A DNA stretch of 64,000 nucleotides, taken from Acidimicrobiales bacterium. Lineage in GTDB: Bacteria > Actinomycetota > Acidimicrobiia > Acidimicrobiales > SZUA-35. The notes under the pieces were generated by a model. That model ran no database searches, had not been told where the DNA came from, and saw only the letters and a list, made by a program, of their open reading frames with translations. The stretch is from the NCBI GenBank assembly GCA_965216675.1, contig CBDCGK010000004.1, forward strand, positions 2,055,692 to 2,119,691, read 5' to 3'. Position numbers and translations under genes: made by a program. Every line of letters starts with the position of its first letter. The first letter of the stretch is position 1. Shown here in pieces: positions 27,456 through 52,460 of the stretch.

Positions 27456-27498
27456 GGGATCGATCCCGCTTTCACCTGACCGAGCTGCCCGATAAACT
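27456..27498 (+). promoter_or_regulatory. Candidate operator-promoter 1: GGGATCGATCCC-N25-TAAACT, upstream of the Tad operon
   Basis: Perfect 12-bp palindrome at 27456-27467. TTTCAC lies at the -35 position and TAAACT at 27493-27498. Spacing is identical to the three other copies. Confidence 0.55.
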
Positions 27499-27650
27499 CA
27501 GCTCCCTGGAGGAATTTGTCCAATCCTGTTGACGGAGCCACCGTTTGATCGAACAAGCATCGATCACGCAGTGTCGATGGCCGGCCGGGTTGAACAGTCA
27601 GTGGTGACGATGACCTCACCTCGATGTGAGGTGGCGGAGGAGGGCGTCGG

Positions 27651-28349
27651 ATGACGTCGACGTTACAAGGGGCGACCCGGAGTGGCAGCAACGGTGGAAC
27701 CACTCCGGCGACCGGGCGGCCAACGACCATCAAGCGTCGCCGATCGTGGCGACCGGGCCTGCTGGCCCTGAGCCTGTTCTTGATCGTCGGCTCCATGTTG
27801 GCCGGACTGTGGCTCTACCAGTCGACCACGTCGAGGGTCGGCATTCTCGTGGCCGCCACCGACCTGGAGGCCGGCGACAGGCTGACCGTCGCCGACACCC
27901 GGGTGCAGTTCGTCGCCGCCGAACCGGATTTCCTGCAGGCCCTCTTCACCGAGGAGCAGGCGACGTCCAGCGGCTTCTACGGCGAGACGCTCGGCCTCAC
28001 CGTGGGTCGAGCGATTCCAGCCGGGTCACCGCTGGTGCGCGCCTATCTGGTCACCGACGAGAACCTCATCCCCACGGGGAAGGCAATCGTCGGCGTCGAC
28101 CTCGAGGTGGGCTCCTACCCCAACCTGATCCGCGACGGTCACACAGTCGATCTGCAGGCCACCTCCGACGACGACGAGCAGCTCACCTCGATTTCGCTGG
28201 GCCGGGCCGAGGTTTGGAGCGCCGTCGTCGATCCCACCAACGGCAAGCTGAGGGCCGATCTGATCGTGGATCTCGAGAACCAGAACGCCGTGGTGCAGGC
28301 CCACCGCAATGACCTTCTCCGCCTGACTCTGGTCGACGGGGGTTCCTGA
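27651..28349 (+). CDS. cpaB: Flp pilus assembly protein CpaB-like (SAF domain)
   Basis: N-terminal TM (LLALSLFLIVGSMLAGLWLY) and a SAF-like segment (LGLTVGRAIPAGSPLVRAYL). First gene of the Tad operon. Confidence 0.7.
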   Translation: MTSTLQGATRSGSNGGTTPATGRPTTIKRRRSWRPGLLALSLFLIVGSMLAGLWLYQSTTSRVGILVAATDLEAGDRLTVADTRVQFVAAEPDFLQALFTEEQATSSGFYGETLGLTVGRAIPAGSPLVRAYLVTDENLIPTGKAIVGVDLEVGSYPNLIRDGHTVDLQATSDDDEQLTSISLGRAEVWSAVVDPTNGKLRADLIVDLENQNAVVQAHRNDLLRLTLVDGGS

Positions 28350-28352
28350 CCG

Positions 28353-29246
28353 GTGCTGGTCAGCCTTTCCTCGTGCCGCGGGGCGCCCGGTGTCTCGAGC
28401 TGGGCGCTGACACTGGCGACAGCCTGGCCGCACTCACATGATCGGGTGCTGGTGGAAGCCGACTGTTCGGGCGGTGTGTTCGGCGGTCGCTACGACGTGG
28501 CCGTCGAACCCGGATCGGCCGAGCTCGTCTCCCAGGCCCGCCGTGGCCGGTTCGATTCCGACCTCGATCTGACCCGGTTTGCGCGCCACGTCCGCACCTC
28601 GGAGAGCCGCGACAGCGAACTCTGGGTCGTGCCGAGCCCGTTGTCGAGCCACGAGTCGCTCGACGTGTGGCGGGCCATGGCCGCTCCGACGGCGGAGGCC
28701 ATGGCCCACGACGATCGGTTGTGGCTGGCCGACTGCGGGCGGGTCTGGCACCGGTCACCCGTCGAGGCGCTGCTGGCCATCGCACCACTGAGCATCGTGG
28801 TCAGCGATCATACGATGCCGTCGCTCCTGGTCTTGAAAGCGCGTATCGAGTCGCTCCCGCACCAGACCGCGATCATCGTTGTCGGCGACATGCAGTACAC
28901 GACCGACGATCTGATCGACTTCACCGGTGCCGACTACGTGTGGAATGTGCCCTTCGTTCGCCGGCTCGATTCGCTGGCGGCCGAATTCGCCACCAGCGGA
29001 CGGGCTCGCCGGTCCCGAACGTGGCGGACCGCACTCGGGATCACCCAGACCCTGGCGACCGGTCTGCAACCGGCTGGACGGATCGCCCCCAGCCACCGGG
29101 AGATCCACCAACAGGATCGCGAGCAGCCGGACGCCCCGCCCGAGGTCAACGGTTCGACACCGGAAACATCCGACGATACCGACGGGCCGCCGGCTGGGGC
29201 CGGTCCGCACGACGAGCAGACCGAGGACTCCGGAGTGGCGTCGTGA
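28353..29246 (+). CDS. CpaE/TadZ-like ParA/MinD-fold protein with a degenerate P-loop
   Basis: VLVSLSSCRGAPGVSSWALTLATAW occupies the deviant Walker A position. Sits between cpaB and the secretion ATPase. GTG start 3 nt after the cpaB stop. Confidence 0.55.
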   Translation: MLVSLSSCRGAPGVSSWALTLATAWPHSHDRVLVEADCSGGVFGGRYDVAVEPGSAELVSQARRGRFDSDLDLTRFARHVRTSESRDSELWVVPSPLSSHESLDVWRAMAAPTAEAMAHDDRLWLADCGRVWHRSPVEALLAIAPLSIVVSDHTMPSLLVLKARIESLPHQTAIIVVGDMQYTTDDLIDFTGADYVWNVPFVRRLDSLAAEFATSGRARRSRTWRTALGITQTLATGLQPAGRIAPSHREIHQQDREQPDAPPEVNGSTPETSDDTDGPPAGAGPHDEQTEDSGVAS

Positions 29247-29271
29247 TCGCCGGTGAGCGGGAGGTCGATCG

Positions 29272-30597
29272 ATGAGCGACCGGGTCTTCGACGCGCTGGT
29301 GGAAACGGCTCGAACCGCCGTACAGGAGGCGCAGGCCCGAGCCGTCGACAACGGCAAACCCCGGCTGTCCTATGACGCCATGGAAGCCGTCGTGGTCGAC
29401 GCCGTCCGCGAGGGCATCAGCCGGTACGCCAACGAGCAGGTGCGACTCGGCCGACGTACGATGTCGGACTCCCAGGAGCAGGCGATGCTGCGGCGGGTGG
29501 TGCGGTTCGTCACCGGCCTCGGACCGGTCGAGGAACTGCTGGCCGACGATGCCGTCGAGGAGATCTACGGCCACTACGACTACGTGCAGATCGACAAGGG
29601 CGGCCAGCCGGTCGCCGTCGTCCGCGACCTGTGGCCCTCCGAGCAGGCGATGGTGCAGTGGCTGTCCGATCTGGCTCGCAACCGGGGCCTCACCGAGCGG
29701 CAGTTCAACGCCGGTTCGCCGTTGCTGGTGTTGCGGCTGCGGGCCGGGATGCGGCTGAGCGCGGTTCGCGACGTGTCGCAGCGGGCGATGTTCAACCTGC
29801 GGCGCAACACCCTCTCCTACGTCAACATTCCGATGCTGGTCGGCAAGGGCATGATGCCGTCTCATGTCGGCGAGCTGCTCCACGCGGCCATGGCGTGTGA
29901 GCTGATGCGGATCGTGTTCGTCGGAGCGACCGGAGCCGGCAAGACCACACTCGCCCGGGCTTGTCTCGACGAGCTGGATCCACAGAAGAACGTGGTCATC
30001 GTCGAGGACACCGCCGAGATCGACATGTGGCACCGGGAGCGCCATCCGCTGTTCCACTCCTTCGAGGTCCGGGAGCCGAACGCCGAGGGCGAGGGCGCGG
30101 TGCCGATGGCCCAACTCGTCAAACAGACACTTCGGCACCGCCCCGACTGGTTCTCGGTGGGCGAGTGCCGCGACGGCGACACGGCGGCCGAGATGTTGAA
30201 GGCCATGACCTCGGGCCACTCGTCGTTGACGACGGTGCACGCCGAGTCGGCCAAGGGCGGGATCGCCAAGATGGCCCTGATGCTCGCCCTGTCCGAGGGC
30301 CGGCTCTCGCTGCCGGTGGCCCACAATCTGATCTCGCAGGGTGTCGATCTGATCATCCACGTCGCCCGCGATCCCCGCAAGGGCCACCGCTACATCACCG
30401 AGGTGGTGGAGGTGGCGGGCTTCGACGGCGAGCAGGCGTCGATCAACCAGATCTACCGGGCCGAGCAGTCGCCGTTCGGCTACGTGACGACGTCGACCTT
30501 CAGCCCGAACCTCGAGGAACGGCTCGGCGGCGTCGGTCTCAACCTGCCCCGCTTCTACCAGCAGTGCGATCGGTCGGCGACGAAGGCGGTGTCGTAA
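29272..30597 (+). CDS. tadA: Tad secretion ATPase (CpaF/TadA, type II/IV secretion NTPase)
   Basis: Walker A FVGATGAGKTTLA, Walker B VVIVEDTAEI and the GECRDGD motif. Confidence 0.9.
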   Translation: MSDRVFDALVETARTAVQEAQARAVDNGKPRLSYDAMEAVVVDAVREGISRYANEQVRLGRRTMSDSQEQAMLRRVVRFVTGLGPVEELLADDAVEEIYGHYDYVQIDKGGQPVAVVRDLWPSEQAMVQWLSDLARNRGLTERQFNAGSPLLVLRLRAGMRLSAVRDVSQRAMFNLRRNTLSYVNIPMLVGKGMMPSHVGELLHAAMACELMRIVFVGATGAGKTTLARACLDELDPQKNVVIVEDTAEIDMWHRERHPLFHSFEVREPNAEGEGAVPMAQLVKQTLRHRPDWFSVGECRDGDTAAEMLKAMTSGHSSLTTVHAESAKGGIAKMALMLALSEGRLSLPVAHNLISQGVDLIIHVARDPRKGHRYITEVVEVAGFDGEQASINQIYRAEQSPFGYVTTSTFSPNLEERLGGVGLNLPRFYQQCDRSATKAVS

Positions 30598-31463
30598 TGG
30601 CCCCCGGAGCGCTCGCGGCGGCTGTGGTTGCCGGCCTGTTGGCCACCGGTCTGGTCGTCTTCGCCTACTCGTTCACCGAGCCGCCACCCAAGGAGGCGAA
30701 GCCGCCGTGGCTGGGCAGGGAGGTCAGCGGCGCGATCCTGGTCTGGGTGGCGTTGAGCGTCGTCGCCGGTCTGGTCGCCTGGTTCGGATCGGGCTGGCCC
30801 GCCGTCGGTTTGGGGGCAGCCGGGTTGGTGTGGGTGTTCAAGTTCTGGTTACGGGCCAATCGGGAGCGGGCCGTCTACTTCAAGACCACCGAGGCCATCT
30901 CGACCTGGGTGGACATGGTGAAGGACTCCCTCGCCGGCGGCGCCGGTCTGAGCCAAGCCATCGAGGCCACCGTTCCGGTTGCCCCCGACATCGTGCGGCC
31001 CCACGTCGCCCGGCTGGCCGGATCGCAGCGGACGTCGAGCCAGTCGGTGGCATTGCGCCAGTTCGCCGACGGTCTGGCCCACCCCACCTCGGACCTGGTG
31101 GTGCAAGCGCTGATCACCGCCAGCGAACACCAGGGTCGCGACCTGCCGAAGCTGTTGGCCAAGACCTCCGAGCAGGCCCGGGCCCGCAACGCCTCGGTCC
31201 TGCAGACCGAGTCGGAACGAGCCCAGCTCTACACCGAGGCCTGGATCATGGTGCTGGCCATCTCGCTGCTCGGCGTCGTCATCACTCTCGTCGCCCGCGA
31301 CTTCTTCACCCCCTACGACACACCGCTGGGGCAGCTGGTCCTGACCGGGCTGATGGCGGTCGTCGTCGGTTCGATTGCGTCGTTGATCCACGCCGGGCGG
31401 CCGCAACGGGAGCTCCGGCTGCTCGCCACACCCGACCAACTCCGGCGAGGAGGTCGGCCGTGA
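30597..31463 (+). CDS. tadB: Tad pilus inner-membrane platform protein TadB (T2SSF domain)
   Basis: ATG 30597 overlaps the tadA stop (TAATG). TM-rich sequence (MAPGALAAAVVAGLLATGLVVF...), in frame with ORF 29961..31463. Confidence 0.8.
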   Translation: MAPGALAAAVVAGLLATGLVVFAYSFTEPPPKEAKPPWLGREVSGAILVWVALSVVAGLVAWFGSGWPAVGLGAAGLVWVFKFWLRANRERAVYFKTTEAISTWVDMVKDSLAGGAGLSQAIEATVPVAPDIVRPHVARLAGSQRTSSQSVALRQFADGLAHPTSDLVVQALITASEHQGRDLPKLLAKTSEQARARNASVLQTESERAQLYTEAWIMVLAISLLGVVITLVARDFFTPYDTPLGQLVLTGLMAVVVGSIASLIHAGRPQRELRLLATPDQLRRGGRP

Positions 31464-32326
31464 TCCTCTTCGCAGTCCTCTTCGTCTCGGCGGCTCTGGG
31501 TACCGGACTGCTGCTGGCCTACCGGTCGTTCACCCTGCCGGCGACCTCGCTCGACACCGCCCTCGAGCGGTCCCGACACACCTGGCAGGACGCGCCCGAG
31601 TCGCTGTTCGATCGGATCGTCCGCCAGGTCGAGGCCATCGGCACGACGGTGCCAGCAGCCGACCTCGAGGTGCTCAACTGGACCGAGTACGAGTGGCATC
31701 GCCGGCGGCTCTATTTCGTGCTCGGCTCGGCCGTCTTCGGGGCGCTGGCCACGGTGGTCGCTCGGCTCTACGTGGAGTTCCCGGTGCTGCTGGCTCTACC
31801 GCTCATCATGGCGATCTTCGGGGCGCTCGGCCTGGCCCTGGTCGAATCCGACCGGACGACCAAGGCCACCGCCGCCCGGAGCGAGATCAGGGCCGCGCTC
31901 ACCCAGTTCCTCGAACTGACCTCGATCATGCTGGCCGGTGGGGCCGGTGCAGAGACGGCGCTGGAACGGGCGTCGCTCAACGGCTACGGCCGGGGGTTCA
32001 CCATGTTCGCCCGGGAGATCGTCCGGGCCAAGGAGGACCCGAGGCTCAATGCGTTTGTCGCGCTGCGAGATCTCGGTATGCGGATCAACGTCAACGAACT
32101 GGTGGATTTCGGCAACGTGATGATCCTGAGCAGCGAGAACTCGGCCACGATCCGTCAGGCCCTCAATGACAAAGCCGGACTGATCGTGCTGCAGGATCAC
32201 GAGCGGCGCCGGGCCGCGGCCAACTCCCGAAACGTCTGGATGTCGATTCCCGTCGTCGGCATGGCCGGTGGTTTCATCTTCTGGCTCATGTACGCAGCGA
32301 CCGCCAGCCTCGTCGGAGTCGGCTGA
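31460..32326 (+). CDS. tadC: Tad pilus inner-membrane platform protein TadC (T2SSF domain)
   Basis: GTG 31460 overlaps the tadB stop (GTGA). Sequence VILFAVLFVSAALGTGLLLAY..., in frame with ORF 30707..32326. Confidence 0.8.
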   Translation: MILFAVLFVSAALGTGLLLAYRSFTLPATSLDTALERSRHTWQDAPESLFDRIVRQVEAIGTTVPAADLEVLNWTEYEWHRRRLYFVLGSAVFGALATVVARLYVEFPVLLALPLIMAIFGALGLALVESDRTTKATAARSEIRAALTQFLELTSIMLAGGAGAETALERASLNGYGRGFTMFAREIVRAKEDPRLNAFVALRDLGMRINVNELVDFGNVMILSSENSATIRQALNDKAGLIVLQDHERRRAAANSRNVWMSIPVVGMAGGFIFWLMYAATASLVGVG

Positions 32327-32386
32327 CGTCGAGTGACCACGAACGACCCTCTGCAAACCACCACACAAACCCAAATGGAGCAAACC

Positions 32387-32605
32387 ATGAAGAAAATGCA
32401 TGATCTGACCATCGCAACCTACGTTCCCGCCCGGAACGCGGTCGGCCGGTTCTGGCGGGATCAGCGAGGGGCGTCGATCTCCACCGTGCTGCTCATCGCC
32501 ATCCTCGTCATCGCCATCGCCGCCTTCGGTGCCATCGTGGCCGGCCAGATCAACACTGCCGGACAGTCCGTCGGTGGTGTCGACTTCAGCGGCAACAACA
32601 ACTAG
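32387..32605 (+). CDS. flp: Flp-family prepilin (non-canonical mature N-terminus)
   Basis: GGAG lies 6 nt upstream of ATG 32387. The sequence MKKMHDLTIATYVPARNAVGRFWRDQRG/ASISTVLLIAILVIAIAAFGAIVAG resembles an Flp leader ending in G followed by a hydrophobic helix. The ORF is open from 32333. Confidence 0.6.
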   Translation: MKKMHDLTIATYVPARNAVGRFWRDQRGASISTVLLIAILVIAIAAFGAIVAGQINTAGQSVGGVDFSGNNN

Positions 32606-32614
32606 CGCAGTCCA

Positions 32615-32998
32615 TTGGCCGTCGGCAGACTTCGAGCCGAGGAGGGCGAGACCGCGGTCGCTTCGACGATCCTGGTTCCGCTTCTGCTGTTCGGTCTCTT
32701 CATGCTGATTCAGATCCTCATGGGTTTCTATGTCCGCTCGGTGGCGTCCGCCGCCGCCACCGACGCAGCATCGTTCCTCGCCCAGGACGGGGTGACGAGC
32801 GGTCAGGCGGAGGCCTACGCCCGAGACTTCATCGCCGATCAATCGGGTGGACTGGTGTCGAACCTGACGGTCACTGCTTCCAAGGGTGCGGAGTTCACCA
32901 ATGTCTCGATCAACGGCGACACCAACCTCCTGTGGAGCGTCGGTCTCGGTGTCGACGCATCGGCCCCTGTCGAACGATTCCAACCCCAGGGGCCATGA
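32615..32998 (+). CDS. TadE-like pseudopilin
   Basis: TTG start. TadE N-terminal pattern EEGETAVASTILVPLLLFGLFMLIQIL. Confidence 0.65.
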   Translation: MAVGRLRAEEGETAVASTILVPLLLFGLFMLIQILMGFYVRSVASAAATDAASFLAQDGVTSGQAEAYARDFIADQSGGLVSNLTVTASKGAEFTNVSINGDTNLLWSVGLGVDASAPVERFQPQGP

Positions 32999-33498
32999 CC
33001 GTGCAGCCACGGAGCCCAAAAACGTCCCCGGCCCTCATCGTCGCGCTCGATGAAGAGGGGTCGGCCGGCTACTCGACCCTCGTGGTCGTACTCACCTTCT
33101 TTGCCGTGCTCGGATTGGGGGTGGCGGGCATGCGGGTCTTCACCGGAGCCGGCGATCTCCATTCGGCGGCCCAGTCGGCGGCTCGGGCGGCGGCCCTCGA
33201 GCACGACCTGGGAGATGCCCAAGCGGCCGCGCAAACCGTGGCGATGGCCGAATTGGCCCGGGCCGACGAGGCGTGTGAGAGTCCGACCATCCAGGTGTCA
33301 CCGGGTGGCGGCGGGTTCGAGCCGGGTGGCTCGGTTCGGATCGACATGACCTGCACGGTTTCGTACCAGGGCCTGTGGGTGCCGTTCATGGGGTCCTCGC
33401 GGGCCGTCTCGGTGTCGGCGGTGGAGCCGATCGACTGCTTGCGGGGCGGCGGCTCCAACGCGCTGGACCTGGCCGACAACTGTTACTACGGCGGGTGA
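32995..33498 (+). CDS. TadE/TadF-like pseudopilin
   Basis: ATG 32995 overlaps the preceding stop (ATGA). Sequence DEEGSAGYSTLVVVLTFFAVLGLGVAG. Confidence 0.6.
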   Translation: MTVQPRSPKTSPALIVALDEEGSAGYSTLVVVLTFFAVLGLGVAGMRVFTGAGDLHSAAQSAARAAALEHDLGDAQAAAQTVAMAELARADEACESPTIQVSPGGGGFEPGGSVRIDMTCTVSYQGLWVPFMGSSRAVSVSAVEPIDCLRGGGSNALDLADNCYYGG

Positions 33499-33502
33499 TC
33501 GT

Positions 33503-33925
33503 ATGAGGCGGCGGACGGCACGAGCAGACGAGGATCGGGGCGATGCCGGCGTGGCGTTCATTCTGATCATTCCTGCGTTGCTGTTCGTCGCCGTTCACCT
33601 CATCACCGCCAGCCAGCAGCTCTACGAGCGCCGGGAGGCCTGGGCCGTGGCCGCATCCGCCAGCAGGGTCGGGGCGCAGGCCGACCCCTTACTCGTCCGC
33701 CAGACCAACGAACCGACCATCGACGCGGCCAAAGCCCGGGCCGCCGTGAACCGCTACGTCACCGACAACGGGTACCAGCTCGACGTGTTCGACCTGACCG
33801 GCAACACCGTGACCGTCGAGATCTCGGGAACCATCGACTACGTGTTCCCGACGGTGCTGAGCACAACGATCACCGGCCGGGCCGAAACGACCCTTCGGGC
33901 CGGTGTCGTTCAGGAGGGGGGATGA
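33503..33925 (+). CDS. TadE/TadG-like pseudopilin
   Basis: EDRGDAGVAFILIIPALLFVAVHLITA, then a ~100-aa soluble domain. Confidence 0.55.
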   Translation: MRRRTARADEDRGDAGVAFILIIPALLFVAVHLITASQQLYERREAWAVAASASRVGAQADPLLVRQTNEPTIDAAKARAAVNRYVTDNGYQLDVFDLTGNTVTVEISGTIDYVFPTVLSTTITGRAETTLRAGVVQEGG

Positions 33926-36204
33926 TGGCCGGCACGGCCCGTCGCCTGCTGCGAGTCGCTCAGACTCTTCTCGCCGGGCTGTTCGGCCTGGTCGTGCTCG
34001 TCGGTGTGCCCCTGGCTCTGTGGCGGTTCGTCGGCAACCCACTCGATCTCCTCCCCCAATCGTGGGAGGAGGCCCGGCGAATGGTCGACCAGCGCAACCT
34101 CACCGCTGATGTCCTGCTCGCGGTACTGACCTGCATCATGTGGGTGCTGTGGTTTCAGTTTGTGTGGGCCACGTTGTGGGAGCTGTTCGTCGTCGGCCCC
34201 AAGGCCGGGAGGGGTGAGGTCGCCCGTGAGGCGCCGGGCGTTCCCCGGTTCATCCGCTCGATCGTCTCGGCCGTGACCTCGGGCCTGCTGTCGGCCAGCG
34301 TTGTGGCCAGCGCCTCGTCGGCGGGGTCGTTGCTTCCCGACCTGGTGGCCAGCGCTCCGGTGTTGGCGACCGAGCTCGTGCAGGGTGACGTCGTCGACGC
34401 CGACACCCAGGCCGCCGGAACGATGGCGATGCAGTTCTACCGCATCACCGATCACGACCGCATGTGGGATCTGGCCGGGCAGAACGACGCCGTGCTGCAG
34501 CGCATTCTCGAGATGAACGCCGACCAGGTGCGCTCACCGATCGACTTCCGACCGGGTATGACCATTCGGGTTCCGGCCAGCCTCAACCTGCCCGACGCGG
34601 TGGCCGACGAGGCCGAGCTCCATACGACCGACGGTGACACCGCCGCCGGCGAGGCGAACGGCAACGTCGTCTATGAGGTGGTCGAGGGTGACAACCTCTG
34701 GAACATCTCCAAGACCCGCTTGAGCGAGGCCGACGGCGAGAGACCGTCGAACCGGGAGATCCTGGAGGAGGTGACCGACGTCGTCGAGCGGAATCCCGAT
34801 GTCATCGAGGACCCGGATCTGATCTACCCCGGTGAGCTGTTGTCACTTCGTTCGGTTGAGGACGCGGTCGAGGCAACCGATGCCGGGCGAAACGAGGGCG
34901 ACGCCACCGACGAGGACCCGGTCCACGAAGGTGCCGCCGAAGAAAATGCCGCCGAAGACGAAGGCACGGCCGACGAAGGCACGGCCGTCGACGAAGGCAC
35001 CGCCGAGGAGGGCTCCGCCCAGCCCTCGGTCGGGGACGGCACAACCATCGATTCCATCCCGGTCGACCCCGGCGACGGATCGTCAACCACGGCGGACCCT
35101 CTGGACGATCCGGAGATCGCTCCGGTGACCGGTTCACCGTCGGCCGTACCGTGGCTGGTCGGCGGCGCCGCACTGTCGTCGGCACTGCTCGGCCTGTACC
35201 TGGCCGGGCGGCGGCAGACGAACGGGTTCACGGTCGGATACTCCCGAAAGCCCGACGACGGCGACGAGGAGACCCCGCCGCTCCTCCAGGCCATCGCCCG
35301 CACCGCCGACCCGCGGTTCATGACCTGGATCGCCCGTCGTCTCGACGACACGCTCGCAGGCCACGGCACCACCGCCGCATTCCCGACGGCCATGCTGGTC
35401 ACGCCGGGGCAGCGGCTGGAGATGCAATGGCCGAATCCGGTGGTGCTGACGGCACCGAAGTGGGGCATGGTCGACGGCGAAGGTCGACGGTGGGCGTGCG
35501 CCTATGATCCCGACGACGCCTCGGCCCCGGCCGACACTCCGACAAGCCCGGGCTCGACGACCACTGCTGCGCTCCCCGCCATGCTCAGTCTCGGACGGGT
35601 GCTCGACGTTCCCGGATCGGCCGGCCCCGCCGATGAGCCACCTGACGACACCGAGCTGCTGGTCAACGTCGAACACTTCGGCTCGATCGCCGTCTGCGGG
35701 TCGACGGCGCACGTCTTCCCGGCGATTCGGGCGATGATCTTCGAACTCGCGGTCGGAGGTCAGGTTTGCCGGACCCACGTGACGACCGTCGACTTCGAGG
35801 TCGAAGGCGCCGAGGTCCTGCCCGCCATCGCCGCCGCCCGCGAGGAGGAGGCCTTCGAGGCCGCCGCCGCCCCGGCCGACACCGGATCGACATTGCGCGT
35901 CTTCGTCGTTCAGGCCATCGGCGCTCAACTCGACCGCTGGTTCGAGCTGGCCAAACCCGAGACCGGGGTGGCGCTGATCCTCATCGGCGACGTCCGTTCG
36001 AGCCGGCTGGGCTCCCGGTTCGTGCTCGCCGATGACGGCACCGGCGAGTTCCACGGCCTCGAACAGCGGGTTCGGGTTCACGGGTTGGGCCCCTCCACCG
36101 CCCTGGCGATCGAGGACCTGTTCCGCTCATCCGAACCAACTGCCGCCGGCGAATCGGAGTCGGTCGAGCCGCAGGTCGAATCGTTCGAGCGGTCGGGCGG
36201 TTGA
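33922..36204 (+). CDS. Membrane protein with two LysM-like motifs and a large acidic/unknown C-terminal region
   Basis: The start overlaps the preceding stop (ATGA). Two N-terminal TMs. LysM-like segments YRITDHDRMWDLAG...GMTIRVP and YEVVEGDNLWNISK...LIYPGELLSL. Last large gene of the Tad operon. Confidence 0.65.
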   Translation: MMAGTARRLLRVAQTLLAGLFGLVVLVGVPLALWRFVGNPLDLLPQSWEEARRMVDQRNLTADVLLAVLTCIMWVLWFQFVWATLWELFVVGPKAGRGEVAREAPGVPRFIRSIVSAVTSGLLSASVVASASSAGSLLPDLVASAPVLATELVQGDVVDADTQAAGTMAMQFYRITDHDRMWDLAGQNDAVLQRILEMNADQVRSPIDFRPGMTIRVPASLNLPDAVADEAELHTTDGDTAAGEANGNVVYEVVEGDNLWNISKTRLSEADGERPSNREILEEVTDVVERNPDVIEDPDLIYPGELLSLRSVEDAVEATDAGRNEGDATDEDPVHEGAAEENAAEDEGTADEGTAVDEGTAEEGSAQPSVGDGTTIDSIPVDPGDGSSTTADPLDDPEIAPVTGSPSAVPWLVGGAALSSALLGLYLAGRRQTNGFTVGYSRKPDDGDEETPPLLQAIARTADPRFMTWIARRLDDTLAGHGTTAAFPTAMLVTPGQRLEMQWPNPVVLTAPKWGMVDGEGRRWACAYDPDDASAPADTPTSPGSTTTAALPAMLSLGRVLDVPGSAGPADEPPDDTELLVNVEHFGSIAVCGSTAHVFPAIRAMIFELAVGGQVCRTHVTTVDFEVEGAEVLPAIAAAREEEAFEAAAAPADTGSTLRVFVVQAIGAQLDRWFELAKPETGVALILIGDVRSSRLGSRFVLADDGTGEFHGLEQRVRVHGLGPSTALAIEDLFRSSEPTAAGESESVEPQVESFERSGG

Positions 36205-36217
36205 TGACGGTATCCGG

Positions 36218-36676
36218 ATGACGGCGCTCGGCTGGATCTGGTTCGCCGCTGTCGCCGCCATCGTCGTGACCCTGTCCGTGACCGACTGGCGTCGCCGCAG
36301 GGTGGCGAACAGCCTGGTGGTGCCGCTGACCGCGCTGGCGGTCGTGTTCGTGGCCGCCGGTGACACCGACGCCGTCGTGACATCGCGGTGGTGGGCGGCG
36401 GCCGCCGCAGCCGTGGCGTTCCTGGCCGGCCTCACCGCCTGGACGGTTGGTCTGGTCGGCGCCGGTGACGTGAAACTGCTGGCGCCGGTCGCGCTGATCA
36501 TGACCCGCCTCGGGTCCACCGCCTGGCTGCTCTACCTCGGCGTGTTCATCGTCACCGCGGTGCTGGTCCTGGTGGCGGGCGACCGCCGGGATCGGTCGCT
36601 TCCCCTGGCCCCGGTGCTGGGGCTCGGCGTCATCCCGGCTCTCCTCGCCGCTCCCCCACCCTGGTTCGGGTCGTGA
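36218..36676 (+). CDS. tadV: Prepilin peptidase (A24 family, TadV-like)
   Basis: Polytopic protein. The two aspartate motifs are LSVTDWRRRRV and GAGDVKLLAP. ATG 36218 is in frame with ORF 36032..36676. Confidence 0.8.
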   Translation: MTALGWIWFAAVAAIVVTLSVTDWRRRRVANSLVVPLTALAVVFVAAGDTDAVVTSRWWAAAAAAVAFLAGLTAWTVGLVGAGDVKLLAPVALIMTRLGSTAWLLYLGVFIVTAVLVLVAGDRRDRSLPLAPVLGLGVIPALLAAPPPWFGS

Positions 36677-36712
36677 ATCCGAACGCCGCTGTCAGAGGAG
36701 CCAGGCTGCGTC

Positions 36713-38896
36713 TCAGTCGAGCGACCAGATCTGGACGGTGCCGTCGAGGCGACCGACGGCCAGCGCCCGGCCGGTGCTCGACCAGCTGACCGCGGTGGCG
36801 TCTCCGTTCCCCGAGGGGGTCAGTTCGACGACCTCGTCACCGGTGACGAGATCCCGGATCCGAACGACGCCGTCCGCGTATCCGACGGCCAGGAGCACGC
36901 CGTCGTCGAGCCGGAGATCGGATGCCAGCACGCTGTTGCCGACGTCGATGCTCGACAGATCCTCGACGGTCCCGTCGGCATCGACCGATCGGAGGGTGAC
37001 GGTGCCGTCATCGTCGGTGGTGAGGACGAGGGTGGCAGCCACCCACTGCACCGACCGGGTCCAACGCCGGTCCGGATTCTCGACGACGGCGATCGGTGCG
37101 GGGGTCTCGATGTCCCATACGATGACCCGACCGTCCTTGCCGCTTGACACCGCCCTCCCGCCGCTCGGGTCCCAGGCGAGGTCGAGCACGTCACCGTCGT
37201 GTCCGTCGAGCACTGCCGGCTCGGAACCGCCCAGATCCCGGACCACGATCCGTCCGCCGGCGTAGCCCTCGAGGAGTCGGGTGCCGCCCGGATCCCAGGC
37301 GACCGCCTCGGCCGATGAGGCGCCGGAGCCGACACGGGTCGGCCCGCCGCCGTCCACTGACGCCACGGCAACGGTCCCGTCGGTGACGGCCACAGCCATC
37401 TGTGTTCCGTCGGGCGACCAGGCGGCGTCGACGACCCAATCGCCGGCGTCGAACTCCGAAGCCGGACCGTTGGATCCCGACAGGGGCCAGATTCGAACCG
37501 CACCGTCGGTGCCGGCGGTGGCCAACTCCGGACCGGCCGGGGCGAAGGCCACGACGGTCACCCAGGACGACGGGTGCGCTTCCCACTCCCGTGTCGGCTC
37601 GCCGACATCAGCCCAAGCGGCACGAGCGGCGGCGGCCGACCGGTCGTCGGTGCTGCGCTCGATGAACTCGCCCGGTTTGGAACCGGATCCGGTCAGCCCC
37701 GCATAGGCGACCGCGGCGACCAGAAACCCGCCGGCGGCGAGCATCGCCCAGTGCCAGCTCGGCCTCGCTCGACCGGTGATGACCGAGCCGGACCGCCGAC
37801 GCGCAGGCTTGTCGACGGTCGGTTCCGTGGGACGGTCCATCGATCCGACCGGCCGCGTCGACGACGGCTCGACGGCCGCGCCGACATCACCGATCGGCTC
37901 GATGCGGAGCCGAGCCCGAGGTTCGGACTCCGGCTCCGGGGCCGGGTTCGGTGGCGGGGTCGGTTGGATGGGATTGCGATCGCCGCCGACCTCGGTCTCG
38001 GCTTCGACCTCGTCGCTCACGATCGGGGTCGGGTCGATGCCGTTGGCCTTCTGGATCTCGACGAGCCGGCGGGCGACCGCCAGACAGGTCGGCGGTCGAC
38101 GGTCCGGGTCTCGGGCCATCATGTCGGTGAGCAGGTCGGCGAGTGCCATTGGCGCCGATGCCGTCAGCCGGGGTGGCGTCTTCGCCGCGGTCACCCGGTG
38201 CACCACGACCTCGGTCGACGGGTCGGTGAACGCCGGCGTTCCCTCCGTCAGGGCGAAGAGGCTGGCACCGAGGGAGTAGATGTCGCTGCGCGCCGTGGGC
38301 CGCTCACCCTCCAGTACCTCGGGGGCACCGTACAGCGGCGTGGTGGAGACCTTGACCGTGAACGACCCACCGACACCGGGAGCGGCGAACGACGCGATGC
38401 CGAAGTCGGCCAGAATAGGCTGCCGATCGAACTCGCCACGGAAGATATTTGCAGGTTTGACGTCACGATGCACGAAACCTCTTGCGTGTGCGGTGTGCAA
38501 CGCACCGGCGATCTTTATACCGAAATCGACCACTTCCGGCCATGCCAATGGACCAGAATCATCGACCAGGTCGGCATAGTTGCCACGAGGGTAGTAGGGC
38601 ATGACGATGTACGGGTGCCGGTCCGCCGTCGTACCACTGCCGTACAGATCGATGATGTTCGGATGCGTCGACAGCCGACCCATCGCCGCCAGCTCGCGCT
38701 CGAGGGCAAGCTCCGTCGCAGCATCGACGCGGCCCCGGTGAAGCACCTTGACCGCAACGGTTCGACCGTGGCGAACATCCCTCGCCCGGTACACGACACC
38801 GGAGCTTCCCACGGCGAACTGCCCCAAATCGGCCAATCCCGGGATGCCGAGTTCGTTGGTCGACTTCCCTTCCCGATCGCCGTCGCCGCTCATCAC
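36713..38896 (-). CDS. Ser/Thr protein kinase with one TM segment and an extracytoplasmic WD40/beta-propeller domain
   Basis: Kinase motifs VAVKVL, HRDVKPANIF, DFGIA and YGAPEV. TM WHWAMLAAGGFLVAAVAYAGL. Repeated ...DG.VR.WDL/WSPDG... blades follow. Confidence 0.9.
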   Translation of the reverse strand: MMSGDGDREGKSTNELGIPGLADLGQFAVGSSGVVYRARDVRHGRTVAVKVLHRGRVDAATELALERELAAMGRLSTHPNIIDLYGSGTTADRHPYIVMPYYPRGNYADLVDDSGPLAWPEVVDFGIKIAGALHTAHARGFVHRDVKPANIFRGEFDRQPILADFGIASFAAPGVGGSFTVKVSTTPLYGAPEVLEGERPTARSDIYSLGASLFALTEGTPAFTDPSTEVVVHRVTAAKTPPRLTASAPMALADLLTDMMARDPDRRPPTCLAVARRLVEIQKANGIDPTPIVSDEVEAETEVGGDRNPIQPTPPPNPAPEPESEPRARLRIEPIGDVGAAVEPSSTRPVGSMDRPTEPTVDKPARRRSGSVITGRARPSWHWAMLAAGGFLVAAVAYAGLTGSGSKPGEFIERSTDDRSAAAARAAWADVGEPTREWEAHPSSWVTVVAFAPAGPELATAGTDGAVRIWPLSGSNGPASEFDAGDWVVDAAWSPDGTQMAVAVTDGTVAVASVDGGGPTRVGSGASSAEAVAWDPGGTRLLEGYAGGRIVVRDLGGSEPAVLDGHDGDVLDLAWDPSGGRAVSSGKDGRVIVWDIETPAPIAVVENPDRRWTRSVQWVAATLVLTTDDDGTVTLRSVDADGTVEDLSSIDVGNSVLASDLRLDDGVLLAVGYADGVVRIRDLVTGDEVVELTPSGNGDATAVSWSSTGRALAVGRLDGTVQIWSLD

Positions 38897-38963
38897 AGCT
38901 CAGAGTATTGGCGGATTGCGGCCGGACCACATCGCCCGGCCACCTCACAACCGGTGATCGCAC

Positions 38964-39006
38964 GGGATCGATCCCCATTGTCGGATCCGGGCACCCCGCT
39001 TAACGT
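38964..39006 (+). promoter_or_regulatory. Candidate operator-promoter 2: GGGATCGATCCC-N25-TAACGT, upstream of the WXG100 gene
   Basis: Palindrome at 38964-38975. TTGTCG lies at the -35 position and TAACGT at 39001-39006, about 43 nt before ATG 39049. Confidence 0.55.
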
Positions 39007-39048
39007 TGGCGACACGAACAAGAACTATCAAATCAGGAGGAAATGACA

Positions 39049-40223: not shown

Positions 40224-40291
40224 GATAGTGGCATCGGACCCGGCGTTGTCGAAGCTTGTCCGGCGGGTTCAGGTCTCGTCGGGAGTGACCG

Positions 40292-45180: not shown

Positions 45181-45198
45181 CAGCGATCCCGCCGATCG

Positions 45199-45241
45199 GG
45201 GATCGATCCCGATTTTCGGTCCCGACCTGATTTTCTACCAT
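45199..45241 (+). promoter_or_regulatory. Candidate operator-promoter 3: GGGATCGATCCC-N25-TACCAT, upstream of the WXG-fusion effector
   Basis: Palindrome at 45199-45210. TTTTCG lies at the -35 position and TACCAT at 45236-45241, about 43 nt before GTG 45284. Confidence 0.55.
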
Positions 45242-45283
45242 CGCCGACGACAGCGGTAGTAGGACGATGGAAGGGATCGGCCG

Positions 45284-46453
45284 GTGGCAGACCTCCATGG
45301 GTTGGACATTGACGAGATGACCCGGCTCGCCGGCGAGATCGACCGGGCGGCCGACGGATGCGACGTCGTCGCCGGGGCGGCTTCGGTCGGTGCGGCCGAA
45401 TCGGTGCGGATCTGGGTTGGAGCCGATGCGGACGACTTCCGCAGTACGTGGTCGGCCACCCACGATCCGGCGGTGCGGCGGGCGGGAGCCGAACTGCGGG
45501 CGATGGCCGAGGTCATCCGGCGCAACCGGGACGAGCAGATCGTCGCCAGCGACGCCGGGACGATCAGCGGCGGTCCGGGTGGGTTCCCCGGCCAGCCAGG
45601 TTGGCCCGGTGGCCCGGGTGGGGCTGGTGGCGCCGGAGGCGCCGGGCCGACGATCACCGTCGACCCCGACGGTCGGGTCTGGACCGGCGCGTTCGACGTG
45701 GGCGACCGGACCGACGGGCGCCTGATCGGTGAGTACGAAACGGGTTGGGCGCTGTCGGCGGCCGCCGCCGGTTCCGCCTCCTACCAGGAGGTCCCGGGCG
45801 GCTTCGAGTTCGACGCCTGGATCGAGGGTCGCTCCGGCTTCCAGGCCCAGGTCGGCGGCACCTACACGAACAATCACCTCGGGCACGATCTTCTGGCCCA
45901 GGGCGAGCTCGGCGTCTTCCTCGGCGGACGAGGCGAGGGGTCGACCGCGCTGGCCTGGACCGACGATGGCTATCTCATCGACCTCGAAGCCGAGGCGTTT
46001 CTCGGAGCCGAGGCCTATGCCAACGGCAACGTCGACTACGGGGCGCTTGGGGCCGGCGGCGCCGCGGTGGCCATGGTCGGCGCCACCGCCGGGGCCAACT
46101 ACCTGAACGAATTCGACGGCCGCAACGTCCGAACCGACCTCGGGGCCGAGGCGTTCCTGGGGGCCAAGGCCGGGGTGGAAGGCGATGTCACGCTGTTCGG
46201 CGACGACGTCTCGGTCGGAGGCGGTGTCGGTGTGTCGACCGGTATCGGCGGCGGCATCGACGGTGGCTTCGCCTTCGGGCTCGACGAGGTCGGCGTCGAA
46301 CTGGATCTGGGTCTGGCCCTCGGCCTCGGCTTCGACGCCTCCATCGACCTGTCATTCGACCCTGTCGGCGTCGGCAGCGGATTGGTCGATGCCGGCGGGG
46401 CCGCCGTCGACTTCGGCAAGGACACCACCGGTTGGATCAGCCCATGGTGGTGA
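45284..46453 (+). CDS. WXG100-like N-terminal domain fused to a Gly/Pro linker and a Gly/Ala-rich C-terminal domain (candidate T7SS substrate)
   Basis: The N-terminus (V)ADLHGLDIDEMTRLAGEI...VRIWVGADADDF parallels the standalone WXG100 (ALFGADIEQLRGLGSKF...AIWVGPDANNF). Linker GGPGGFPGQPGWPGGPGGAGGAGGAGP. The C-domain has internal repeats (EAEAFLGAEAYANG / LGAEAFLGAKAGVEG). Confidence 0.7.
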   Translation: MADLHGLDIDEMTRLAGEIDRAADGCDVVAGAASVGAAESVRIWVGADADDFRSTWSATHDPAVRRAGAELRAMAEVIRRNRDEQIVASDAGTISGGPGGFPGQPGWPGGPGGAGGAGGAGPTITVDPDGRVWTGAFDVGDRTDGRLIGEYETGWALSAAAAGSASYQEVPGGFEFDAWIEGRSGFQAQVGGTYTNNHLGHDLLAQGELGVFLGGRGEGSTALAWTDDGYLIDLEAEAFLGAEAYANGNVDYGALGAGGAAVAMVGATAGANYLNEFDGRNVRTDLGAEAFLGAKAGVEGDVTLFGDDVSVGGGVGVSTGIGGGIDGGFAFGLDEVGVELDLGLALGLGFDASIDLSFDPVGVGSGLVDAGGAAVDFGKDTTGWISPWW

Positions 46454-46493
46454 ACCGAGCGAACCGAGTGAACCGACAACCGAAAGGACGATC

Positions 46494-46997
46494 ATGACCC
46501 GCACCATGGGCTTTCCCACCCCCGACTTCCCCGGCCCCCCACCGTTCCGATTCGAGCTCCCGCAGGACTGGCGGGCGATGCCGTCGGTCCAAGCCGACGC
46601 TGTCGTCGTCGGACCGGAGGCCCACGACGGGGTGCACCCGAACGTGGTGGTCGCCAACCACAAGGTACCGCCCACCGACGATCCGGCATCGCTGCTCCGG
46701 ACCATGATCGATCAACAGGTCCGGCGCGACAACGTTCAGCTCGACGGTGACCCGGCGGTGTCCGACGACGGTCTATCGTGCCGCGTGCGTCTCACCCGCC
46801 GCGGCACCGCTGAGGCCGCGCCCGGCGACGCCGCCGCGGTCCCGACCGATGCGGTCGACATTGCGCAGTCGCTGAACCTGCGCTACATCGCCGGCTCACA
46901 CGTGGCCCATGTCCTGGCCGCCACCGGCACCTACGCCCCGTCAAGCGACGAAAGCCGTGCCGTGGTCGACGAGGTGATCCGCTCCGTCGAGTGCTGA
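46494..46997 (+). CDS. Effector-associated accessory protein (paralog of 52467..53114; candidate chaperone/adaptor or immunity)
   Basis: ATG 46494 lies within ORF 46185..46997, preceded by AAAGGA. It shares DFPxxPxxxxxxPxxWR and VxGPxxxDGVxPNxxVxxxxVP blocks with the 52467 gene. Confidence 0.55.
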   Translation: MTRTMGFPTPDFPGPPPFRFELPQDWRAMPSVQADAVVVGPEAHDGVHPNVVVANHKVPPTDDPASLLRTMIDQQVRRDNVQLDGDPAVSDDGLSCRVRLTRRGTAEAAPGDAAAVPTDAVDIAQSLNLRYIAGSHVAHVLAATGTYAPSSDESRAVVDEVIRSVEC

Positions 46998-47068
46998 CCT
47001 GAACTGGCCTGGCAGCAGGCCGGCGTCATGCGGTACCGTTCTGCTGGTTCACCCCCAGGAGGCAGACG

Positions 47069-48313: not shown

Positions 48314-48372
48314 ACCCACCATCGGTCACTCCCCGGGTCGCCGGTGTCGACGGAGCCCGCCGTGGGTGGGTG

Positions 48373-49014: not shown

Positions 49015-49043
49015 CCTGCGCCGTCCCGGTGGTCCCAGCCATT

Positions 49044-51068: not shown

Positions 51069-51180
51069 CCGGTCACACTAACAGCGCCGACCGGATCGAA
51101 CCGCGCCGGGCCGAGCCCCCGCAAACGGGGTCCCGGCTCGGCACGGATGCGAACGGACGGACCTGCGGAGTCCGCCGGGT

Positions 51181-52374
51181 TCAGTAGCTCTTGGGGAGCC
51201 CCAGGCACTTCTGGGCGACGAAGGCCAGGACCAGGTTGTTGTTGATCGGGGCCACCTGGTAGAGGCGGGTCTCCCGGAGTTTGCGTTCGATGTCATACTC
51301 GGTGGCGAATCCGAAGCCGCCGTGGGTGTTGACCGCGGCGTTGCCCGCCTCCCACGACGCCTCCGAGGCGAGCATCTTCGCCATGTTGGCCTCGGCTCCA
51401 CACGATCGGCCGGTGTCGAACAGCTCGGCGGCCTTCCACCGCATCAGGTTGGCCGCCTCGAGGTGGGCGTACGCCTTGGCCAGGGGAAAGGCCACGCCCT
51501 GGTTCATGCCGATGGGCCGCCCGAAGACGACACGCTCCTTCGCGTACGCCGACGCCCGATCGAGGAAGAACGTGCCGTCACCGATGCACTCGGAGGCGAT
51601 GAGGATGCGTTCGGCGTTCATGCCGTCGAGGATCTGACGGAAGCCGTTGCCCTCGACCCCGACCAGCGAGTCGGCGGGGATCTCGACGTCGTCGAAGAAC
51701 ACCTCGGTCGAGTTGTGGTTCATCATCGTCTCGATGGGGTTGATGGTGAGCCCGGGCAGCAGCTCGCCGTCGTCACCTCGGAGATCGAACAGGAACGTCG
51801 ACATGCCGGCCAGCCGCTCGGCTGGATCATCCGAGGGCGCAGTGGTGCGGGCCAGGAGCAACATCATGTCGGAGTACAGGGCCCGTGAGGTCCAGATCTT
51901 CTGGCCGCTGACCTTCCAGACATCACCGTCTCGAACGGCTCGGGTGCGGATGGCGGTGGTCTCGGATCCGGCGGTCGGTTCGGTCACCCCGAAGGCCTGG
52001 AGCCGCTTTCGTCCATCGGCGATCTGGGGCAGGTAGCGCTGCTTCTGCTCGTCGGAGCCGTGGCGTAACAGTGTGCCCATGATGTACATCTGGGCGTGGC
52101 AGGCCGACGGGTTGCCACCCGAGGCGGCGATCTCCTCCAGGATCACCGACGCCCCGCCGAGGCTCAGACCCCCGCCGCCGTACTCGGTCGGGATGAGCGA
52201 ACCGAGCCAGCCCTGATCGGTGAGTTCGGAGACGAACTCCTCCGGGTAGCGGTCGGGTTCGAGGGAGCGCCAGTAGTCGTTGCCGTAGTCGTCGCACAAT
52301 CGGCGGATCTCGGATCGGATGAGATCGTGGTCCTCGTCGGTGTAGGGATCGGCGTCGGTGTCGGCAGCGCTCAT
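51181..52374 (-). CDS. Acyl-CoA dehydrogenase
   Basis: Full-length ACAD pattern (LQAFGVTEPTAGSE, GGFGFATEYDIERKLRE). Confidence 0.9.
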   Translation of the reverse strand: MSAADTDADPYTDEDHDLIRSEIRRLCDDYGNDYWRSLEPDRYPEEFVSELTDQGWLGSLIPTEYGGGGLSLGGASVILEEIAASGGNPSACHAQMYIMGTLLRHGSDEQKQRYLPQIADGRKRLQAFGVTEPTAGSETTAIRTRAVRDGDVWKVSGQKIWTSRALYSDMMLLLARTTAPSDDPAERLAGMSTFLFDLRGDDGELLPGLTINPIETMMNHNSTEVFFDDVEIPADSLVGVEGNGFRQILDGMNAERILIASECIGDGTFFLDRASAYAKERVVFGRPIGMNQGVAFPLAKAYAHLEAANLMRWKAAELFDTGRSCGAEANMAKMLASEASWEAGNAAVNTHGGFGFATEYDIERKLRETRLYQVAPINNNLVLAFVAQKCLGLPKSY

Positions 52375-52417
52375 AGCGCCTCAACCGTAGTCAACGCCGG
52401 ACGCAGCCGGACAGCCG

Positions 52418-52460
52418 GGGATCGATCCCGATTTCGTCATCGCGGGCCGGTTTCTACGAT
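52418..52460 (+). promoter_or_regulatory. Candidate operator-promoter 4: GGGATCGATCCC-N25-TACGAT, upstream of the satellite effector module (leaderless geometry)
   Basis: Palindrome at 52418-52429. TTTCGT lies at the -35 position and TACGAT at 52455-52460. ATG 52467 begins 6 nt after the hexamer. Confidence 0.55.

Follow-up and report, generated by a model that had tools for sequence, protein, structure and literature searches.

A palindrome repeated at the Tad and T7SS-like locus

The 64,000-nucleotide stretch analysed here (the window) belongs to contig CBDCGK010000004.1 of an Acidimicrobiales bacterium and carries a Tad-type pilus operon, a WXG100 gene, the gene for an EssC/EccC-like ATPase of a type VII secretion system (T7SS)-like apparatus and two toxin-like modules of candidate effector and accessory genes, together with genes for a transmembrane WD40 Ser/Thr kinase and for a protein combining an FHA domain with a probable helix-turn-helix (HTH) domain. 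The subject of this report is a perfect 12-bp palindrome, GGGATCGATCCC, found ahead of the pilus operon, the WXG100 gene and both effector modules, which from its sequence context and conservation is very likely to be a functional operator.

Four exact copies of the palindrome (s1 to s4; Table 1) occur in the window, all of them intergenic, with no fifth exact or one-mismatch copy anywhere in the 64 kb. By chance a mean of 0.05 copies would be expected, and four or more were seen in none of 100 dinucleotide-preserving shuffles of the window. Two-mismatch copies are at chance level (11 against 10.8 expected), degenerate copies with one or two mismatches showing no enrichment in the window. The first copy lies between a PEBP gene (26870-27412, minus strand) and the SAF/CpaB-like first gene of the Tad operon (27651), s2 between the WD40 kinase gene (start 38896, minus strand) and the WXG100 gene (39043), s3 19 nt past the stop codon of an open reading frame (ORF) at 44767-45180 and ahead of the gene starting at 45284, and s4 between an acyl-CoA dehydrogenase gene (start 52374, minus strand) and the gene starting at 52467.

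At all four sites 25 nt separate the palindrome from a TANNNT hexamer resembling a -10 element. The background frequency of TANNNT on the plus strand is 7.7e-4 per position (the window being 67% GC), and the chance of three further copies repeating the offset of the first is about 5e-10. A T-rich -35-like hexamer begins 2 nt past each palindrome, leaving a 17-nt spacer; all four hexamers start with TT and match TTGACA at 3-4 of six positions, and a scan for E. coli-type consensus promoters gave nothing at these sites. At s4 the ATG is located 6 nt past the -10 hexamer, a leaderless geometry. The sequence-only reading of this DNA had described the four intergenic copies without a fifth, the hexamers with their spacings and the leaderless start at s4, and an exact search and rereading of the window bear it out on each of these points. 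It had further suggested that the sites might act on the minus-strand PEBP, kinase and dehydrogenase genes. No TANNNT was present at the 25-nt offset on the opposite side of any of the four window copies, and the element is in this sense directional despite the symmetry of the 12-mer. Geometry so strictly one-sided points to the plus-strand genes, and not to the PEBP, kinase or dehydrogenase gene, as those that the sites serve.

Computed from an assumed -10 element at -12 to -7, the palindrome would lie at about -49 to -38, with its centre near -43.5. A class II-type activator is favoured over a repressor because of the near single-bp phasing across unrelated promoters and the weak -35 elements. 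Alternatively the bound protein, be it the FHA+HTH protein or another, would be a repressor occluding the -35 region until a signal relieves the repression. Such a role would suit a palindrome that ends 2 bp ahead of the -35-like hexamer, a position able to exclude polymerase, as well as perfect, non-degenerate sites of the kind expected for a tight repressor, and costly or toxic secretion substrates are often held repressed. However, a repressor needs no phasing fixed to 25-26 bp across unrelated promoters, and the poor -35 hexamers, with no stand-alone consensus promoter detected, are a better fit to activator dependence, such that repression is considered unlikely.

An additional GGGATC-like half-site was seen about one helical turn upstream of the palindrome at several promoters (window 38950-38963; L002 6700-6712; L003 8075-8087; L001 21494-21503, where L numbers denote related loci), with ggGGATCgcacGGGATCGATCCC at WXG100 promoters and GGGATCGGGGATCGATCCC in L001 as examples; this suggests cooperative or higher-order binding. 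A terminator or RNA hairpin was rejected as a reading of the palindrome, with no such structure predicted at the four sites and a loopless 12-nt palindrome being too weak.

Conservation of the palindrome in related genomes

The window derives from an uncultured member of the Acidimicrobiia, and the closest homologues of its ATPase are from Acidimicrobiia/Acidimicrobiales metagenome-assembled genomes (MAGs). Related loci were fetched through homologues of the ATPase, the FHA+HTH protein and the SAF protein, independently of the motif. Six of these protein-anchored loci (L001, L002, L003, L049, L071, L073) contain 10 more exact copies of GGGATCGATCCC, all ten intergenic and followed by TANNNT at 25/26 nt toward the next gene, and the 14 exact copies from the window and these relatives are all outside coding DNA. 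The genes behind the relatives' copies are orthologous to those in the window or of the same class, namely the Tad operon, WXG100, effectors with a WXG-type N-terminus and the accessory family.

At the WXG100 promoters of four genomes invariance is limited to the palindrome, the -35-like TTGTC and the -10, seen as the blocks CGGGATCGATCCCCATTGTC and CTTAnnGT, while spacer and flanks diverge. The palindrome of this promoter persists in a clade (L007, L031, L035, L042) whose ATPase is only about 50% identical. Among the Tad promoters of seven genomes the palindrome is kept in all seven, exactly in five and with one central mismatch in two, and GCTTTC, TAAACTCA and TAAACT-like hexamers are conserved. 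The spacing at these Tad promoters is 25 nt in four genomes and 26 nt in three, such that the sequence-only claim of exactly 25 nt holds in the window and fails as an absolute rule. The promoter orthologous to that at s3 has an exact copy in L001 (14762) and a one-mismatch copy, GGGATCCATCCC, at the same spacing in L006; the s4 orthologue in L041 retains the leaderless geometry. Of the one-mismatch copies in relatives, those at L006 7043, L070 and L072 are sites at orthologous promoters, and the others do not show the geometry. Eight promoters of different, non-orthologous genes share only GGGGATCGATCCCGAT (about 16 nt) and TA...T. The Tad promoter of the distant clade has a one-mismatch copy, GGGATCGGTCCC, some 100 nt ahead of the SAF gene, but no canonical -10 follows it at 25/26 nt. 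A further one-mismatch copy in that clade, GGGATAGATCCC followed by GATGTAC, has the T2SSF gene on one side and the gene of an 80-aa pilin-like protein on the other (L031 7761-7772; L051 3753-3764), and no canonical TANNNT was found at 25/26 nt from it.

Conservation at orthologous promoters while the flanks diverge, a constant orientation, the same gene classes downstream and absence from coding DNA underlie the reading that one regulon, defined by a single operator, comprises the Tad operon, the WXG100 gene and both effector modules. This regulon, as first put forward from the window alone, is supported by every computational test applied, and a single dedicated regulator very probably binds at the palindrome.

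The same observations bear on whether the 12-mer could be a chance or neutral repeat, such as the remnant of a dispersed element or a methylation or restriction palindrome without a role in transcription. It is short and holds GATC, CGATCG and ATCGAT, and 64 kb is the inspected part of the source genome. Against this stand the chance expectation and the absence from coding DNA given above, the lack of any shared extended repeat beyond about 16 nt, conservation at orthologous promoters of genomes with proteins 50-80% identical, and rarity in 596 Gb of genomes outside the lineage. On this comparative evidence a neutral repeat appears close to refuted. A dispersed repeat or mobile-element remnant was rejected as an origin, non-orthologous copies having only the ~16 nt and the -10 in common.

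A scan for the pattern GGGATCGATCCC-NNTT-N21-TANNNT in 185,579 species genomes (one per species, 596 Gb) gave 41 matches, about 24 of them scattered low-GC chance matches and about 17 in Acidimicrobiia MAGs, several of the latter sharing contigs with ATPase homologues, including the clade with an ATPase about 50% identical. The complete 5.39 Mb chromosome of a relative (OZ244195.1) has two matches, both inside the cluster, and because the pattern is confined to the cluster in this chromosome the regulon appears to be small and local and not genome-wide. A few further sites, again of these kinds, came from a scan of metagenomes. Altogether 27 non-redundant sites at 25 nt (29 with two at 26 nt) precede four gene classes: the Tad SAF operon, WXG100, effectors with a WXG-type N-terminus (of which one has a calpain-like domain at its C-terminus) and the p215/acc175 family of accessory proteins. 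A genome-wide dispersed repeat, the scenario that the sequence-only reading had named as contrary to a regulon, was not found in this search. The pattern-scan sites do carry the geometry by construction, which counts against using them in its favour, and the argument rests on the protein-anchored loci.

In OZ244195.1 (L001 21504-24033) the palindrome heads an operon of an accessory-family gene, an extracytoplasmic function (ECF) sigma factor gene and a second Ser/Thr kinase gene, which is possibly a second regulatory tier. No orthologue of this ECF sigma gene occurs in the 64-kb window. An alternative sigma factor reading the 12-mer directly as an extended -35 element would account for the fixed distance to the -10 and the one-way orientation, and the ECF sigma gene behind one copy in this relative is in keeping with it. 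It is nevertheless highly improbable, as a separation of 25 bp from the -10 exceeds that of any sigma-70-family -35/-10 pair, the -10 hexamer is of the housekeeping TANNNT type, perfect two-fold symmetry indicates a dimer and the window has no such ECF gene. The candidate was rejected on the distance and the two-fold symmetry.

Pilus, secretion and effector genes

The features of the locus are collected in Table 1.

Table 1. Palindrome copies, predicted promoter elements and genes of the locus, in window coordinates
Feature	Position	Strand	Basis
Probable operator s1 (GGGATCGATCCC), Tad operon promoter	27456..27467	+	exact match
s1 promoter core: -35-like TTTCAC 27470-27475, 17-nt spacer, -10 TAAACT 27493-27498	27470..27498	+	sequence reading
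Tad-type pilus operon: SAF/CpaB-like protein, 297-aa protein, TadA/CpaF ATPase 29272-30597, T2SSF membrane proteins, small pilin-like ORFs, 760-aa LysM protein 33922-36204, A24 prepilin peptidase 36032-36676	27651..36676	+	Pfam matches, orthologue annotation in L001/L051, orthologue map
Transmembrane Hanks-type Ser/Thr kinase, C-terminal WD40 beta-propeller; proposed sensor	36713..38896	-	Pkinase E 1.6e-39, WD40 matches
Probable operator s2, WXG100 promoter	38964..38975	+	exact match; CGGGATCGATCCCCATTGTC block
s2 promoter core: -35-like TTGTCG 38978-38983, 17-nt spacer, -10 TAACGT 39001-39006	38978..39006	+	
Small WXG100-like protein, 94 aa	39043..39327	+	TIGR03930 match
FHA + probable HTH protein, 243 aa from ATG at 40211; proposed regulator	39480..40211	-	AF2 model, Foldseek
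EssC/EccC-like FtsK/SpoIIIE ATPase, N-terminal FHA, 1492 aa	40292..44770	+	Pfam
Probable operator s3	45199..45210	+	exact match
s3 promoter core: -35-like TTTTCG 45213-45218, 17-nt spacer, -10 TACCAT 45236-45241	45213..45241	+	
Effector with WXG100-like N-terminus, 45284-46453, 389 aa; then accessory gene ~46494-46997	45284..46997	+	
Probable operator s4	52418..52429	+	exact match; orthologous copy in L041
s4 promoter core: -35-like TTTCGT 52432-52437, 17-nt spacer, -10 TACGAT 52455-52460	52432..52460	+	
Accessory protein 52467-53114; then effector with WXG100-like N-terminus 53089-54207, 372 aa	52467..54207	+	

The pilus operon was assigned from Pfam matches of the window proteins to T2SSE (E 5.6e-30) and SAF (E 3.9e-7), with T2SSF and Peptidase_A24 matched on the Tad orthologues and linked to the window proteins by homology in the orthologue map. 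By these sequence matches the components expected of a Tad pilus are all represented, namely a TadA/CpaF ATPase, a TadB/C platform, a prepilin peptidase and a CpaB-like SAF protein. The 150-nt leader of the operon (window 27505-27650) has a conserved block, CTGGAGGAAnnTGTCCAATCnTGT, directly after the -10 and a small hairpin, CCTCACCTCGATGTGAGG (~27612-27632), just 5' of the Shine-Dalgarno sequence GGAGGAGGG; in L040 the hairpin stem changes from CAC/GTG to CAT/ATG, a compensatory exchange. A known RNA element in this leader was rejected, with no Rfam match and folding no better than that of shuffled sequences (z 0.43).

The secretion ATPase matches FtsK_SpoIIIE (PF01580, E 2.6e-48) in two stretches and FHA (E 1.2e-9). 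No EccB/D/E/MycP or EssA/B/EsaA families were found in Pfam scans of the cluster proteins and, as these further core T7SS membrane components were not found, the system is called T7SS-like only. The 94-aa WXG100-like protein matches TIGR03930 (WXG100_ESAT6) at E 3e-5 with 24 bits, below the curated cut-off of 44.85; it has no Pfam match at E 0.01, an exact-protein look-up returned no record, and its orthologues are 51-97% identical.

Behind s3, the N-terminus of the first effector shares 29-30% identity with both the WXG100 protein and the effector at 53089-54207, with a weak TIGR03930 match, and the accessory gene that follows is 53% identical to a motif-driven gene of L001. The effector behind s4 matches WXG100 in Pfam (E 0.0043) and TIGR03930 (E 7e-5), and its homologues in L002, L003, L038 and L049 each come immediately after a palindrome of their own. 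Paralogy (32% identity over 84 aa) connects the two accessory genes, which are without family annotation and stand one ahead of and one behind a WXG-type effector, and each could be an immunity or chaperone candidate on this arrangement. A leaderless-geometry palindrome is also found in an Actinomycetes MAG (L019 5557 onward, JAEZFY010000261.1) ahead of an effector with a WXG-like N-terminus and the calpain-like cysteine protease motif GDLGNCWLLA; Peptidase_C2 effectors are present in the L001 and L002 clusters too. Between s3 and s4 lie a beta-lactamase-family gene (47069-48313, plus strand) and DUF429, S9 peptidase and acyl-CoA dehydrogenase genes. The beta-lactamase-family and DUF429 genes take the place of a minus-strand gene at 46931-48322.

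All relatives retain the WD40 kinase gene, which in each of them is oriented divergently from the WXG100 gene. A hydrophobic segment separates the kinase and WD40 domains of its product, with the propeller predicted to be outside the cytoplasm. On the minus strand at window 38893-38910 the gene has a conserved TACTCT -10 (plus-strand block CTCAGAGTATTG) 8 nt ahead of the ATG, from which the kinase transcript is probably leaderless or short-leadered; measured from this promoter, the centre of the s2 palindrome would fall near -74. Another Hanks-type kinase gene (62562-63998) runs off the end of the window, its product being ~31-35% identical to the kinase domain of the cluster kinase. Upstream of the cluster (11000-25500) is a large surface-polysaccharide locus without the palindrome, encoding GT4 and GT2 glycosyltransferases, a Wzy-like ligase, a flippase, a sulfotransferase and an epimerase. 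Unrelated to the operator is a 586-aa protein (3902-5662) with an alginate-lyase domain and RTX calcium-binding repeats, by its domains probably a secreted enzyme.

The candidate regulator and its relation to known systems

The FHA+HTH protein is most plausibly the binder of the palindrome, as judged from gene content and co-occurrence. No other DNA-binding-like protein was found in the conserved cluster or, as far as scanned, in the whole window. The sequence-only reading had nominated the frame at 39480-40223, and an FHA fold and a probable HTH domain have indeed been found in its product, 243 aa from the ATG at 40211. This protein has no significant sequence match in Pfam, NCBIfam or PDB, and its AlphaFold (AF2) models are confident, with predicted local distance difference test scores (pLDDT) of 91.9 for the full length and 89 for the C-terminal domain. 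The N-terminal half has the FHA fold, with Foldseek matches to Rv1747 FHA-1, OdhI and GarA (E 2.5e-5 to 1e-4, probability 1.0), and G40, R41 and H54 are invariant in the family and N71 nearly so. The best PDB matches of the C-terminal four-helix domain are the DNA-binding domains of LiaR, DegU, GerE, NarL and VraR (TMt 0.75-0.80, root-mean-square deviation about 2 Å, but E 0.5-3), which would make it a probable HTH of LuxR/GerE/NarL-like type. The motif W..KFNRKLD is invariant and lies in the predicted recognition helix, and 27 family members gave nine sub-threshold matches summed over five HTH/Crp Pfam families.

The FHA+HTH protein is the most conserved of the locus, with 87-91% identity in relatives compared with 72-82% for the ATPase. 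In the distant clade it is 60% identical and its gene is again divergent from the ATPase gene, and there the exact palindrome persists. The motif and the FHA+HTH gene co-occur wherever the locus is long enough to show both (the window, L001-L003, L006, L032, L049, and L051 with L031). Its neighbours are the genes for the transmembrane WD40 Ser/Thr kinase and for the FHA-bearing EssC/EccC-like ATPase. The family is large, with at least 321 clusters at 50% identity (E 1e-30 or better) of ~230-250 aa each.

A number of observations weigh against assigning this protein to the palindrome as a kinase-responsive activator. The Foldseek E-values of the HTH are only 0.5-3; the window protein has no Pfam match at E up to 10 over its full length, its C-terminal domain alone gives a match of 0.19, which is chance level, and there is no match to PF00196 (GerE). 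The phosphothreonine-binding Ser of the S-x-x-H loop is not conserved, its position being variable with N50 conserved instead, and phosphopeptide binding by the FHA domain is therefore uncertain. More distant homologues with the same recognition-helix motif (45% identical in L045/L046, 35% in Gordonia L047) have no GGGATCGATCCC nearby, and no other recurring palindrome was found near the distant FHA+HTH loci L045-L048; these 35-45% identical homologues adjoin PP2C, FHA, kinase and FHA-ATPase genes. In such cases either specificity is set elsewhere or the family is not what binds the site. The 40212-40291 intergenic region between the regulator and ATPase genes contains no palindrome, so that both genes are without an operator and without an autoregulatory signature. 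Finally, the source organism is an uncultured MAG.

Several of these points are in keeping with a regulator encoded elsewhere, perhaps a response regulator of the NarL/LuxR type or some other dimeric factor, with the FHA+HTH protein having some other role such as a scaffold for the FHA-ATPase. The proposed link from the FHA+HTH protein to the site is indirect, the evidence for its HTH is weak, its distant homologues have no palindrome nearby, and the motif-driven ECF sigma/kinase operon of L001 (21504-24033) shows further regulators in the circuit. Against an outside regulator, a complete chromosome has the motif only inside the cluster, every sufficiently long locus contains motif and FHA+HTH gene together, and the 64 kb, as far as scanned, yielded no second DNA-binding protein; we regard such a regulator as somewhat unlikely.

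The mechanism preferred here, in which the FHA+HTH protein acts as an activator under kinase control, is given a probability of roughly 0.45 as a whole. In this mechanism a dimeric transcription factor specific to the Tad-pilus/T7SS-like cluster would have GGGATCGATCCC as its operator, which would abut the weak -35 (TTnnnn, 2 bp downstream) of housekeeping-sigma-type promoters and be centred at ~-43.5, the class II activator position allowing contact with RNA polymerase. The binder would be the 243-aa FHA+HTH protein, whose gene diverges from that of the secretion ATPase; its FHA domain would read phospho-threonine signalling from the neighbouring transmembrane WD40 kinase and so set the activity of the regulator. 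A single external signal would in this way induce the pilus operon along with the WXG100 substrate and the effector/accessory modules of WXG type, with the FHA-bearing ATPase placed under post-translational control by the same kinase. The start sites, the identity of the binder, activation over repression and the kinase link are all points that we infer.

EmbR of Mycobacterium tuberculosis combines a SARP DNA-binding domain with an FHA domain and is a partner of the kinase PknH. It is the nearest precedent for an FHA-bearing transcription factor, with DNA-binding and FHA domains in one protein coupled to a transmembrane Hanks kinase, and its structure (2ff4) is among the Foldseek matches of the FHA+HTH protein. 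EmbR differs in having an N-terminal winged-helix SARP domain with BTAD, whereas the present protein has an N-terminal FHA domain and a C-terminal four-helix HTH without sequence similarity to EmbR, and the arabinosyltransferase genes that EmbR targets are unlike the targets here. LuxR at the lux box and DosR at GGGAC-N-GTCCC act as class II dimers near -42 to -44, abutting or overlapping the -35. The present sites resemble those of LuxR/NarL/GerE activators in being a short GC-flanked palindrome near the -35, and the GGGA...TCCC half-sites are similar to DosR boxes. In contrast to these activators, the present protein has no GerE Pfam match and no receiver or autoinducer domain, its input domain being FHA, and the 12-bp palindrome has no spacer.

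Among described secretion systems, T7SSd/e have an FHA-bearing TsxC and a kinase while T7SSg/h are Tad-adjacent (Garrett et al., 2024, PMC11217815). The likeness of the present cluster to T7SSd/e extends to an FtsK/SpoIIIE ATPase with N-terminal FHA, a WXG100 protein, a Ser/Thr kinase and LXG/WXG-type toxin candidates, although the C-terminus of the T7SSd kinase is helical and that of the present kinase WD40 (PMC11217815). The ATPases of Tad-adjacent Bacillota systems are without FHA, and no shared cis-element or regulator has been reported for them (PMC11217815). A contact-dependent antagonism programme of Tad and T7SS together was new to the sequence-only reading; co-location of Tad and T7SS genes in Bacillota had been noted in the same work, with 'common regulation?' raised as an open question (PMC11217815).

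In the Esr pathway of Schaalia odontolytica threat sensing controls Esx transcription, in that a sensor with a beta-propeller, together with a Hanks kinase and an FHA-domain output protein, induces the WXG100/EccC system and surface structures, with surface polysaccharide genes forming part of the response (Wang et al., bioRxiv 2026, PMC13622651). The step from FHA to transcription is stated there as unknown and no operator is described (PMC13622651). The present locus shares with Esr a propeller, a Ser/Thr kinase and an FHA output protein linked to esx-type genes, and the fusion of FHA to EccC that is sometimes seen in Esr is found here also. By analogy it may work similarly. It is different in that the propeller is fused to the kinase, whereas in Esr it is on a separate filamentous surface protein, EsrA; no MoxR, vWA, transglutaminase (EsrD) or PP2C (EsrF) partners were found among the cluster genes scanned. 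EsrG is a pseudophosphatase-intrinsically disordered region-FHA protein without a DNA-binding domain, compared with an FHA protein with a probable HTH and a defined operator in the present case. Esr has been confined to the class Actinomycetes (PMC13622651), while the present lineage is Acidimicrobiia. What is new here relative to Esr is the defined operator and the inclusion of Tad genes; in the literature searched the 12-mer has not been reported as an operator.

The activation of T7SS/Esx-type systems outside mycobacteria and Firmicutes is largely unknown, and the locus provides a concrete, testable case. At the level of cis-evidence, the shared operator answers for one lineage the question of common Tad/T7SS regulation (PMC11217815). 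The operator can also be used as a sequence tag for new secreted effectors in Acidimicrobiia metagenomes, having already flagged a calpain-like effector and an ECF-sigma/kinase operon. A wider proposal, possible though doubtful at present, is that the FHA+HTH family represents a direct single-protein transcriptional output of Hanks-type kinases, firing Tad, an EssC-like apparatus and toxins from one 12-bp operator. If true, this would supply the missing step between kinase/FHA threat sensing and the induction of Esx-type genes and would be evidence that a Tad pilus and a T7SS-like ATPase function as one antagonism or contact machine.

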